64,000 nucleotides of DNA from Sarea resinae (Eukaryota): the NCBI GenBank assembly GCA_026026165.1, contig JAPEUD010000046.1, positions 1 through 64,000 on the forward strand, given 5' to 3'. The position numbers and the translations under genes were made by a program. The notes under the pieces were generated by a model. The model did not search any database. It had not been told where the DNA came from and was given only the letters and a program-made list of their open reading frames with translations. This document shows positions 18,443 through 22,446 of the stretch, in pieces (within the stretch, counting starts at the first letter, position 1; each line of letters begins with the position of its first letter).

Positions 18443-20638
18443 TCACTTGCTACCGCCACTCCCACCCGCCGACCAGTCCTTGCCCTTCGCCTTACCCATA
18501 CTCCTCGTCAGCATATGGAAGGGCGAGAACGAGGGCGTGGTGCGGCGGGCGTCGGATTTGTGCTTCTTGCGCGGTGTCGTCGTCTCTTCGGAGTCCGGCT
18601 TCGAGGCCGATTTCGCCTTTCGCAGACTCGGTCCTGGTGAAGACGAGTCGCGCTGTGTCTTTGCTTCTGGCTCGGACTCGGCCTCGAGCTCGGGCGCGAT
18701 CGTCGCTGTGCCGTATAGCATGTCGCGTACGGCCGATTCGGTTGGCATGGGGATGGGCCCGGGCTGTTGAGGGGCTGGCTGTTGAGGGGCTGGCTGTTGA
18801 GGCACTGACTGTTGTGGTGCTTGCTGTTGTGGTGCTTGCTGTTGTGGCGCCAGCTGGAGTGGTGCTAGCTGCTGAGGCGTTGGCTCGAATACAGAGCTTG
18901 GCATGGGTGTAGGATTTATAAAGCGTAGCGGGGCGGGAGCAGAAGGACCAGGAGCAGAAGGGCCGCGGTTCGTCGGCCTGCCGCGATGCGGTAGGGTACC
19001 ATTACCACCAATAACACTCTCTATGGCCTTCCCCTTGCCCTTATTGAGGTTCGTCCTAGGAGGAGTATCCGGCTCAGCGACAGTGCCCATGAGATCAGTA
19101 GGCCCTGAATTCTCGTTGGATTGAGAAGCATCTGCCTTTGCCTGGAATTGCGCCATCTCTTTTCCCGACGCCTGCTTTCGCTCGTAGTCCTTTTGGATAG
19201 CGATACGTGTCTCGCGCCACCATTTGATGTGCTCGTCCCACTTTTGGTCGTCGGACTTCGAGCTGTCAGGGCCGTCAAAAGAAGGAGGCTCCTGAGCACC
19301 AAAATGCAAGTCCCGGGGATGAACGGTATCGGGGGAATTGGGATCGTCAACTTTATGGCCAGGAGACGTTGAGCCTTGCGATGGTCCTTGTGATGGCTCT
19401 TGCGATATATCGCGTGATGAACCTTGCGGTGAGCTTTTCATCTGATCTGCAGACTGCAGTTCGGCGCGGTTTTCACCTTGGGCTCTAGGATGATTGCGCC
19501 CGAAGATATCGGGAGCAAGGGTTGGGTTGGGTCCGAAAGCATTTTTCATCGTAGTAGTGGCGTCACTATCCGGCGAAGACGAGCTAGAAGAAGACTGTTG
19601 CTCGAGTTGCGCGTTCACTTGCGCGTTGACTGCTTTGTTGCCTTCTAACTTGCCCATGAACGCGGTCTCGTCCCAGATTTCTTCGTGGTCGGGAAAGCTG
19701 GTGCGCGGATAGAGAGCTACTGCATCCAAGCAGGGTCTGAATGGGTTGTCAAATTCAGTGAACCAGTCGGTCTCGCTTTCGAGAGCTCCGGCGTTATTGG
19801 TGAGACTCCAGGAGGATAAGGAGATGGGACTGAAGGGAGCGATTCTCGGGCGATGAGTAGGGATATGCCAGTCGAGCTTTGGCCAGTAGGTTTTGTTTTG
19901 GCCATGATGACTGTTATTATCCTGGTTGTTGTCATTATAGTGGTGGACGCTGAATTCGCGTTTGTTGTTCTTTTGCTGGCCAATGTTGCTGCCAATTCGG
20001 GGAATAGGGAATCTATTTGGGTCGCTTGAGACAGATGTAGAAGTAGGAGCAGAGCAGCCAGGAGAAAGTGTCGCGCTATTAGGAGAGCACATATTTGGGG
20101 TGTATACTCCAGTAGAAAATCCAAAGCAGCCTAGCTTCCCCGAGGTCGCGGGATTTCGCTGGGCGTCAGGCGGACAGAGAGCGATGTCTCCAGCAATCTC
20201 AGATCCAGAGAGGACACCAGAAGACCACGGGGACCTATGGAAGCTGTCCGAGTGGGGTGAGAGGGTCATGTTTCCATCTAGCTCGAAGTTGTCTTGGATG
20301 TGCCAATCCGCACGCCCTGTGAACGGCCGTTCTGGCAGACCTTCTATATGCATGTAGTGGCCCGAGATGCTTCTCTCTGTAGAGGATTTGCTCCAAATAT
20401 CTGAATCGTCAGGGTCGTTCCATGATCTTCCTCCACATAGATCCAAGCACAAAGAGGGCATTTTGGGTGTGCATAGAGATCTTGCAATCGCAGGGCAATT
20501 CAAACAGTACCTCGATTGCCGCTGGACAAAACATTTGCGATGCAGCAACGAGTCTACGGACCCCAAAGGGACTCGGTCTAGTTTTATAGGGCATTTTGTA
20601 GCCGCCTGACATAACCTGGTGAACCAACTTGACTGCAA
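18443..20638 (-). CDS. Orphan hypothetical protein, largely low complexity
   Basis: Uninterrupted 731-codon ORF with no recognisable family. The listed start is a TTG; the true start may be a downstream ATG. Confidence 0.6.
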   Translation of the reverse strand: MQSSWFTRLCQAATKCPIKLDRVPLGSVDSLLHRKCFVQRQSRYCLNCPAIARSLCTPKMPSLCLDLCGGRSWNDPDDSDIWSKSSTERSISGHYMHIEGLPERPFTGRADWHIQDNFELDGNMTLSPHSDSFHRSPWSSGVLSGSEIAGDIALCPPDAQRNPATSGKLGCFGFSTGVYTPNMCSPNSATLSPGCSAPTSTSVSSDPNRFPIPRIGSNIGQQKNNKREFSVHHYNDNNQDNNSHHGQNKTYWPKLDWHIPTHRPRIAPFSPISLSSWSLTNNAGALESETDWFTEFDNPFRPCLDAVALYPRTSFPDHEEIWDETAFMGKLEGNKAVNAQVNAQLEQQSSSSSSSPDSDATTTMKNAFGPNPTLAPDIFGRNHPRAQGENRAELQSADQMKSSPQGSSRDISQEPSQGPSQGSTSPGHKVDDPNSPDTVHPRDLHFGAQEPPSFDGPDSSKSDDQKWDEHIKWWRETRIAIQKDYERKQASGKEMAQFQAKADASQSNENSGPTDLMGTVAEPDTPPRTNLNKGKGKAIESVIGGNGTLPHRGRPTNRGPSAPGPSAPAPLRFINPTPMPSSVFEPTPQQLAPLQLAPQQQAPQQQAPQQSVPQQPAPQQPAPQQPGPIPMPTESAVRDMLYGTATIAPELEAESEPEAKTQRDSSSPGPSLRKAKSASKPDSEETTTPRKKHKSDARRTTPSFSPFHMLTRSMGKAKGKDWSAGGSGGSK
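18761..18880. repeat. Coding 15-bp minisatellite (QQPAP/QQQAP units)
   Basis: Degenerate tandem units such as GGGGCTGGCTGTTGA and GGTGCTTGCTGTTGT. Confidence 0.85.
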
Positions 20639-20867: not shown

Positions 20868-22446
20868 TCAACCCTGAGGCCGAGCTTGCAAAATTCGGTC
20901 TAGCGCGTCCTGCATCTGGTAGCCATTGCGGTCAAATCGCTCCAGCAACCCAATCTGCCACTCCTGGAAGGTGCGAGTCGGCGGAGGCATCAAGTCATTA
21001 CTATTTTCCAGAGCAGTACGTAAGGAGCGAAATGCGGCGGTAGGTAGATGGACCTCTTCAAAATTCGCGCTTTGTTTTGTGATTAGTTCTTCTGGATTTG
21101 AGATTTCCTGGTAGAACATTTTCATTGCGCGCCTAGGTTCATCTGGCTTCGTCGAAGACGAATAGCGTAAATCCGGTGTGAAAACCCAGCACTGAAAACC
21201 ATGAGCAATGCGGAATTGAGACCCTGAGGATTGGCATTGGACTTACTATTAGTGCTGCCCCTCCCTTCCCTTTCTCATTACAGTGAACCACGAATTTTCG
21301 CACAGCTTGGCTGTCTATCAAAGCTAAAAGCTGAGCAGATATGAAGGGTTCTACGGGATATGTTCGCGGTGGGGCGCTGCGATTGGAGCGCACGGAGAGA
21401 CTCCATTTATATAGCCTCCACCCTTCAGCTCGATCATCCGGCGCACCAACAACAGTTTTACAATGAGTGCATGATAAAGCTGTAGGACGCTGCGATTGTT
21501 CTGTTGGTATAGACTGCATAAGAATTAGCAAATGATATTTCTCGCTGAAATCCCGTGCCGTCCGTCCACTCGAAGAGCGCACGGCGAAATAAGGAGATGA
21601 GAATAGACCATAGCTATCTATAACAAGCAACCCATCTCGAGCAGAGCCAGAGAGGGTACACTTGAGCAGACAAGCCAGGCGTGTGTTCAATCTTGGGAAA
21701 TTGTATCGGCGGCCAGACCATGACCGAAAATACATTCGGGGCAAGGCCTCCTTCTTGTTTCCCAACTACCAACAGACCCCAAAAGACAAGAAATAGAGAT
21801 GATGATCAAGGCATTAAACCTACGTGAGTACAAAAGATTCTGAAATACTGACCTTGATACCCGAGCAATCCTCTTCTGAAAGCAAAAAGGAACAGAGGTC
21901 TACAAAACCGGTGCCTGGCTGAGCCACAAGCCGATTCGACGCAGCATATCCCTTGTTCGCAGTGCCAACCGCATCAGCACCATTCTCGGGCGCATCCGGC
22001 TTGTGGCAGTGCCAAAAGTCCATCATCTCGGCCCAGTTCTCGCTGGGCAGGTCCTTCCAGGTCTTGATCACACCGCCCTGGATGAAACAGCTGCCGCATT
22101 TTCGGCAACTTAGCACGGCTGATGAAGTCAAAGATCCTGCCGACCAGGGGACGTAGTTATCCAGATCGTGCAATTGCGGTACAGCTGGTTGATTCTTGTC
22201 CGCGATAGCCACGCGGAAAGAGATTTCCTTGCTCTTGGCTGACGGTAGTGTCAAGGCGGCCGAACCCCCGACCTGGGTAGGCAGACGAATGGTAGAGACT
22301 TGGCCTTCATGTTCTAGAGAGACGGCTTCTCTGTCCGAAGAGAGGTTCACCCGTGTTTCTTCGTTGCGGACAGACTTCAATGAAGCAAAGATAGTTAGCT
22401 GCCGGATGTTGAGCAGTAGCTCCGCGTACAGGTGTGAGGAGGCCAT
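20868..22446 (-). CDS. IPA1: HECT-like E2-binding ubiquitin ligase, UBE3D/Ipa1 family
   Basis: LYAELLLNIRQ, CRKC, WKDLPSENWAEMMDFWHCHKP, CTHC...GWRLYKW, WVFTPD, MKMFYQ. Introns 21514-21852 and 21192-21246. Confidence 0.9.
21533..21765 (-). ncRNA. Intronic box H/ACA-like guide RNA, snR81-like (predicted target U2 snRNA psi42)
   Basis: 5' hairpin with TTGGGAAA/TTTCCCAA lower stem and AAGAA/GATAC pocket, complementary to U2 GUAUC-UG-UUCUU. 3' hairpin CCGTGC/GCACGG is followed 14 nt later by AUA, an ACA-box variant. Confidence 0.7.

Follow-up and report, generated by a model that had tools for sequence, protein, structure and literature searches.

A predicted box H/ACA guide RNA for U2 U42 in a conserved intron of a UBE3D/Ipa1-like gene of Sarea resinae

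In Saccharomyces cerevisiae the H/ACA RNA snR81 is a proven guide for pseudouridine 42 (psi42) of the U2 small nuclear RNA (snRNA), and it also guides psi1051 of 25S ribosomal RNA (rRNA) (PMC6049503). In animals the 5' hairpins of Xenopus SCARNA15, of SCARNA4 and of a Drosophila small Cajal body-specific RNA (scaRNA) guide the equivalent position, which is psi41 in vertebrates. Their guiding was shown by yeast assays: yeast without snR81 regains psi42 when given SCARNA4 or Xenopus SCARNA15 (PMC5733568). In Schizosaccharomyces pombe there is a guide for the neighbouring U2 43/44 sites only (pugU2-43/44, BK009173), which was discovered by searching for a conserved pocket strand (PMC5473140). Here we describe a stretch of 64,000 nt of Sarea resinae (positions 1 to 64,000 of contig JAPEUD010000046.1, assembly GCA_026026165.1), which we call the window. 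On its minus strand there is a gene of the HECT_2/UBE3D/Ipa1-like type. Its first intron is probably the source of a guide RNA of the box H/ACA type with a length of about 235 nt, whose first hairpin (hairpin 1) would be directed to U42 of U2. An earlier note on this DNA had proposed an intron-encoded, snR81-like U2 guide at this place; pocket geometry, conservation, stem covariation and the likeness to snR81 support it.

The U2 numbering was set from a yeast oligonucleotide of nt 31–78: G37-U-A-U-C41, U42, G43 and U44-U-C-U-U48 (PMC4712673). In an H/ACA pocket the 3' strand binds the target on the 5' side of the uridine and the 5' strand binds it on the 3' side; from the target uridine down to the H or ACA box the distance is 14–16 nt (PMC2780460). 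Hairpin 1 has this geometry. Its strands AAGAA and GAUAC form 5+5 Watson-Crick base pairs (bp) with U2, both target-adjacent pairs are formed and U42-G43 remain free, which agrees with the canonical geometry claimed earlier. Variants of snR81 with 5+5 bp still produce psi42; the minimum is 8 bp and the adjacent pairs are the most important (PMC6049503). The 10 bp of our pocket exceed this minimum and include the adjacent pairs. The H box starts 14 nt past the upper stem, at position 21693, within the range of 14–16 nt. Every coordinate named before for the hairpin and the pocket strands was checked on the minus strand and found correct, as were the upper stem and the AGATTG 14 nt past it. Hairpin 1 is retained in the minimum-free-energy fold of the full intron and also in that of the isolated segment.

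The conservation of this intron was studied in 80 loci from metagenome contigs, fetched with an alignment of 30 homologues of the host protein; the identity in exon 1 is 42–54%. In nearly all 80 loci the projected end of exon 1 is followed by GT. Downstream sequence of 250 nt or more is available for 73 loci; exact AAGAA and GATAC, separated by 15–80 nt, occur in the same intron in 69 of these. The four exceptions are L025, L027 and L071, which have UAUAC, and L036, which has GAGAA, where G-U pairing is still possible. L025, L027 and L071 also have a longer upper part of hairpin 1, and their host protein is 92–100% identical to Friedmanniomyces endolithicus entries. The orthologous introns have lengths of 255–432 nt, with a median of 330 nt (55 distinct sequences out of 67 introns).

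The 55 distinct sequences, with the window included, were aligned over the whole element (alignment A2). In the aligned guide columns AAGAA is found in 52 of 55 sequences and GATAC in 53 of 55; the columns are 96–100% identical. Around them the sequence changes and the pairing is kept: in the 14 pairs of hairpin 1, 86.9% of the cells are paired in 53 distinct sequences, versus 30–55% when the partner is slid. Changes on both sides are found in 13 of the 14 pairs, in a total of 95 cells, and none of 500 shuffles equals any of the observed covariation measures. Stems that covary about constant unpaired strands are what marks an antisense element. An alignment of orthologous introns had been suggested earlier as a check: AAGAA and GATAC are kept and the stems covary.

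A profile hidden Markov model (HMM) was built from 54 distinct homologues, with the window excluded. It has a single match in both strands of the window (128 kb searched), at 21763–21542 with an envelope of 21768–21535 and E 7.3e-19; the copy in the window is therefore a member of the family. Its score is 62.8 bits, versus 28.7–165 bits across the loci. The same profile matches 75 of the 80 loci, once in each, in the sense strand and directly after exon 1; nine of these matches lie outside the training set. The five loci without a match are on contigs which end 72 nt or less past exon 1.

These results bear on the simplest alternative, that of a chance hairpin in a long intron. Raw pairs of AAGAA and GATAC are not rare: there are 12 in both strands of the window versus a mean of 8.0 in Markov simulations, and only one of them has stems. 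With loose criteria a hairpin with these two words was found in 21 of 200 simulated windows, which would favour chance. However criteria equal to the observed hairpin (6 of 7 pairs in the upper stem, at least 8 in the lower one) were reached in none of 500 simulations, and the element is present in all 75 loci which have sequence there. The conservation of the element refutes a chance origin, which we consider extremely improbable.

Some of the loci can be placed by the identity of their exon 1 to named proteins: 94–99% for Alternaria, 92–100% for Friedmanniomyces and 81–87% for Paraphoma, Ascochyta and Plenodomus. The protein of loci L038 and L040 has 99.5% identity with an A. alternata entry. 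The remaining loci have an identity of 42–77% with any named entry; their best matches are in Chaetothyriales, Venturiales, Leotiomycetes and Xylona. From these identities it follows that the element spans several classes of Pezizomycotina. Among the 80 loci none is nearest to a Sordariomycete or to Eurotiales.

If hairpin 1 is indeed a U2 guide, the RNA would be released from the spliced intron, trimmed to ends protected by proteins and assembled into a particle with the H/ACA proteins Cbf5, Nop10, Nhp2 and Gar1. In the pocket GAUAC would pair with U2 G37-C41 and AAGAA with U44-U48, and U42 would be changed to pseudouridine. In the predicted RNA, hairpin 1 would be followed by an internal hairpin (hairpin 2), by a 3' hairpin with a second pocket (hairpin 3) and by a box at the ACA position, which is AUA here. 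All features are given in Table 1. The earlier note had seen the 5' part of the element; the 3' two thirds, with hairpin 2, hairpin 3 with its second pocket and the AUA box, had been overlooked.

Table 1. Features of the host gene and of the predicted RNA in the window
Feature	Position	Strand	Details
Predicted mature H/ACA RNA, about 235 nt	21533..21769	minus	putative ends: few nt before hairpin 1 stem, 3 nt past AUA
Hairpin 1, predicted pseudouridylation-pocket hairpin for U2 U42	21693..21765	minus	folds and covariation
Hairpin 1 lower stem TTGGGAAA / TTTCCCAA	21765-21758 / 21700-21693	minus	RNA letters UUGGGAAA / UUUCCCAA
5' guide strand AAGAA	21752..21756	minus	complementary to U2 U44-U48 (UUCUU)
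Hairpin 1 upper stem GG-A-GGCC / GGCC-G-CC	21751-21745 / 21714-21708	minus	sequence
3' guide strand GAUAC	21703..21707	minus	complementary to U2 G37-C41 (GUAUC)
H box region AGAUUGA	21687..21693	minus	departs from ANANNA at position 6 (G)
Hairpin 2, internal, without obvious pocket	21607..21680	minus	single-sequence folds and pairing counts
Hairpin 2 conserved words UACCCUC / GAUGGGUU	21658-21652 / 21636-21629	minus	near-invariant, mutually paired
Hairpin 3, 3' hairpin	21539..21603	minus	lower stem UUCUC/GAGAA, upper stem CCGUGC/GCACGG
Hairpin 3 second pocket, 5' ..UUUCG / 3' GAUUU..	about 21589-21585 / 21552-21548	minus	fold
AUA at ACA-box position	21536..21538	minus	14 nt past hairpin 3 upper stem
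Branch-site-like UGCUAAU	21524..21530	minus	5 nt past AUA box, 2 nt past predicted RNA 3' end; read from sequence
3' splice site AG	21515-21514	minus	downstream of UGCUAAU
Intron 1, host of the RNA, 339 nt, phase 0	21514..21852	minus	GT at 21852, AG at 21514
Exon 1, host gene (HECT_2 / UBE3D / Ipa1-like)	21853..22446	minus	Pfam PF09814, E 1.7e-57, profile positions 1-194
Exon 2, host gene	21244..21513	minus	Pfam HECT_2 (PF09814), profile positions 200-277

In the H box region the first and last letters, A1 and A7, are A in all 55 sequences and A3 is A in 51. The canonical ANANNA is present in 35 of 55 (and in four more when shifted by one), whereas 16 of 55, including the window, have ANANN[G/C]A. 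The imperfect AGAUUG which had been noticed 14 nt downstream has the variant form of these 16 copies. In the column of the ACA box 53 of 55 sequences have ACA; the two others are the window, with ATA, and L024, with AAA. We assume that AUA is tolerated at this position.

In hairpin 2 the stem is 73% paired (27–49% in slid controls) and in the lower stem of hairpin 3, which adjoins the ACA box, 84.5% (23–51% in slid controls), values obtained for helices which were named from single-sequence folds and then counted, a procedure that favours the named structure. Hairpin 2 has no large internal loop. The sequence conservation within its stem suggests a protein-binding or tertiary role; we could match its conserved words to no known motif. 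In having an extra hairpin after the H box and ahead of the 3' hairpin, the element presumably resembles the yeast H/ACA RNAs of the snR30/U17 type; snR30 has a role in rRNA processing and different motifs. The lower stem of hairpin 3 has double changes in all five pairs. Its pocket strands are less conserved and vary with the lineage: UUUCA on the 5' side and GAUAA, GAUUA, GUUUA, GAUCA or GAAAG on the 3' side. We looked for its target with the guide words for U2 psi35, psi38, psi40 and psi44 and for 25S psi1051, and they are not conserved in the 55 copies. Some lineages have additional small hairpins, or a long-range stem that closes the 3' domain.

At the apex of hairpin 3 (window 21574–21569, minus strand) the loop often contains YNAG (UCGAG, CUGAG, UCAGA): it is found in 43 of 55 copies, but by our estimate chance alone gives such a tetramer in roughly one of three. 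It resembles the ugAG of the metazoan CAB box. We also considered a single-hairpin RNA, closed by the ACA in AACACAC which comes directly behind hairpin 1, 21 nt from the pocket, and rejected it: this box has the wrong spacing and it is not conserved.

The departures of the window from the consensus could mean that the family is a genuine H/ACA family but that this copy is decaying or inactive. Among the 55 distinct copies AUA replaces ACA in the window alone; it also has G at position 6 of the H box, and its 62.8 bits are in the lower part of the range of the loci, a comparison which is not like for like, as most loci are in the training set. However the same variant of the H box is found in 16 of 55 copies, always with the invariant A next to it. 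The window has also kept every stem, the two guide strands and the two spacings of 14 nt, and the intron still has its full length. We consider a decaying copy unlikely.

We now turn to the host gene. Both exons which flank intron 1 match consecutive segments of Pfam HECT_2, so the intron is genuine. The homologues of the gene are annotated as ubiquitin-conjugating enzyme E2-binding protein, and the nearest relatives of the host protein have an identity of 56% or less. The length of 339 nt given for intron 1 in the earlier note is correct; the contrast with most introns here is not confirmed as stated, on a comparison with a single further intron, intron 2 of the same gene (55 nt). Beside these 55 nt, the 255–432 nt of all 55 distinct orthologues of intron 1 speak for an RNA inside it. 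A functional tie of the RNA to the 3'-end processing attributed to the host gene had also been proposed, for which we found nothing beyond co-location.

UGCUAAU, which we take to be the branch site from the fungal CTRAY consensus, lies close to the end of the predicted RNA. In the fold of the whole intron UAUUUCUUGU (21795–21786) pairs with GCGAGAAAUA (21545–21536) in the minus strand; this stem encloses the entire RNA and overlaps the AUA box. This pairing of i58-67 with i308-317 is perhaps fortuitous, or perhaps a competitor of the lower stem of hairpin 3.

The location of the element leads to a further alternative: a conserved cis structure of the host precursor messenger RNA, for control of splicing or for autoregulation, instead of a trans-acting guide. 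The element always occupies the corresponding intron of this one gene, in the window and several of the homologues only a few nt separate its end from the branch site, and the fold of i58-67 with i308-317 joins the ends of the intron. However a cis structure leaves unexplained the unpaired invariant AAGAA and GAUAC, the H/ACA boxes at spacings of 14 nt and the likeness to snR81. Besides, conserved host introns are usual for intronic small nucleolar RNAs (snoRNAs), for example in Neurospora crassa (PMC2780460). A cis role in place of a guide appears highly improbable.

An open reading frame (ORF) of 208 amino acids (21139–21765, minus strand) starts as MGNKKE... inside hairpin 1, crosses the remaining intron and continues in exon 2. 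Over the N-terminal 84 codons it is a mistranslation of non-coding RNA, in agreement with what had been said of this ORF. When four DNA runs were aligned at a likeness of 80%, the conserved exon stretch DFWHCHKP and a single contig of exon 2 were covered, with zero intron coverage; the runs are uninformative either way. A neighbouring ORF (18443–20638, minus strand, 731 amino acids) has many low-complexity stretches of Ser, Pro and Gln, with repeated APQQ units.

The comparison with known RNAs starts from Rfam 15, a search which had been suggested as a check. For the window and for 20 of the homologous loci it gave no gathering-level match. Below threshold the best matches of the window and of L002 are U2-psi42 guides. 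In the window the best one is Drosophila PsiU2-38.40.42 (RF02667), with 14.3 bits, E 8.1 and a threshold of 88 bits. In locus L002 it is yeast snR81 (RF01246), with 16.5 bits, E 0.87 and a threshold of 50 bits. The snR81 model has no match in the window up to E 10. The element fits no existing family of Rfam 15.

The likeness to snR81 claimed earlier is best seen in L002, where hairpin 1 aligns to the 5' hairpin of snR81. Both pockets leave U2 U42-G43 free, with cores ..AAGAA and GAUAC.., and both have a lower stem of the type GGG.../...CCC with an AGA-type H box directly after it. In contrast the fungal element has three hairpins instead of two and is encoded in the intron of a protein-coding gene. 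It also has no conserved counterpart to the 3' pocket for 25S psi1051, with its consensus 5' strand ..UUACAUAUU. The word TACATAT is found in 7 of 55 copies; by reading of the sequences, it lies at the ACA box and tail (..TACATAT..). Orthology of hairpin 1 to snR81 is plausible. In L002 there is an ACA (CACACG, L002:1790–1806) after hairpin 2, where the snR81 model puts its ACA box; it is not conserved in the family. This locus could be read as a two-hairpin snR81-like RNA with a third hairpin.

Among the animal RNAs, the model pocket of Drosophila PsiU2-38.40.42 (ACAAGAA / GAUACAAU) aligns with hairpin 1 of the window, and SCARNA4 (ACA26) is alike in its 5'-terminal hairpin which guides psi42. 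The element differs from SCARNA15 and PsiU2-38.40.42 in its 3' part: the 3' hairpin of the model is deleted in the alignment, and the guide words for U2 38/40 are found in 0–1 of 55 copies. As pugU2-43/44 of S. pombe, it would be a fungal H/ACA guide for U2's branch-point recognition region. It is unlike pugU2-43/44 in its guide words, since ACAGATAC and TGAAAA, which serve the neighbouring uridines, are in 0 of 55 copies, and also because that RNA is independently transcribed, downstream of RPC10. To judge from these alignments, hairpin 1 would function like the first hairpin of snR81 and SCARNA15, while the 3' part, the number of hairpins and the formal Rfam membership differ.

The 20 H/ACA RNAs of N. 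crassa (supplement 2 of PMC2780460) have no such pocket in hairpin form. We asked if ACA9, an intronic orphan RNA with a length of 201 nt, could be the RNA described here; it was rejected, as the full pocket is in 0 of the 20 sequences. A match in ACA11 (AGGAA..) found with a regular expression is not the motif.

One could still think of a genuine H/ACA RNA whose hairpin 1 has its main target in rRNA or in a different snRNA, or which has a role other than guiding, so that the match to U2 is incidental. The complementarity examined is 10 nt with U2 alone, and the pocket of hairpin 3 is without an assigned target. Against it, the ten guide letters are nearly invariant though the host protein is only 42–54% identical, and therefore demand an equally invariant target. 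The same letters are present in the proven psi42 pockets of snR81 and Drosophila PsiU2-38.40.42, according to the Rfam model alignments, and the geometry puts a U at the target position. Another main target seems to us very unlikely.

A guide for U2 U42 is thus the reading we prefer, and several results weigh against it. The U2 target was assumed from yeast and from general conservation, so that the reading presupposes GUAUCUGUUCUU in the U2 of the host; the 15-mer of the branch-point recognition region also appears in the literature for the U2 of human, frog, fish and larch. In L025, L027 and L071 the UAUAC would leave C41 of U2 unpaired. Near-duplicates are frequent among the 80 loci, with 55 distinct sequences from 67 introns, and the counts of loci therefore overstate the number of independent lineages. 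Both boxes of the window are off consensus, AGAUUG not being ANANNA and AUA not being ACA. The architecture is that of hairpin-hinge-hairpin-tail with an extra internal hairpin, three where two are canonical. With plain MAFFT alignments as input, RNAalifold found hairpin 1 alone when given the full element, and zero pairs for the 3' hairpin. The Rfam scores are far below the gathering thresholds (14.3 versus 88 bits, 16.5 versus 50 bits), and locus L046 has no relevant Rfam match even below threshold.

In the literature which we searched no U2 psi42 guide was found described for filamentous fungi. A survey of fungal snoRNAs has snR81 restricted to Saccharomyces (PMC5824354); family members or U2 targets which its supplements may contain would bear on the novelty of the element. 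An experimental screen of Aspergillus fumigatus found zero H/ACA RNAs (PMC2377427).

A wider interpretation may be put forward, which we regard as rather unlikely in its entirety. The element would be a missed orthologue of snR81 and SCARNA15 in filamentous ascomycetes: an ancient U2-psi42 guide of fungi and animals, which has stayed in one intron of a UBE3D/Ipa1-like gene ever since these fungal classes radiated. The pocket of hairpin 3 (5' UUUCA, 3' GAUAA, GAUUA or GUUUA) would guide a second pseudouridine, possibly in loop IIa of U2. This target is our guess, in which the target word would be AUC-U-N-UGAAA and the guide UUUCA would copy a strand of U2 stem IIa. Finally, the end of the RNA beside the branch site would couple the supply of a modifier of branch-site recognition to the splicing of a 3'-end-processing gene.

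The predicted RNA provides a concrete candidate gene for U2 psi42 in a wide range of ascomycetes, including sequences like those of Alternaria. It is a possible evolutionary bridge between snR81 of yeast and SCARNA15 and SCARNA4 of animals, and an example of deep conservation of a host intron.

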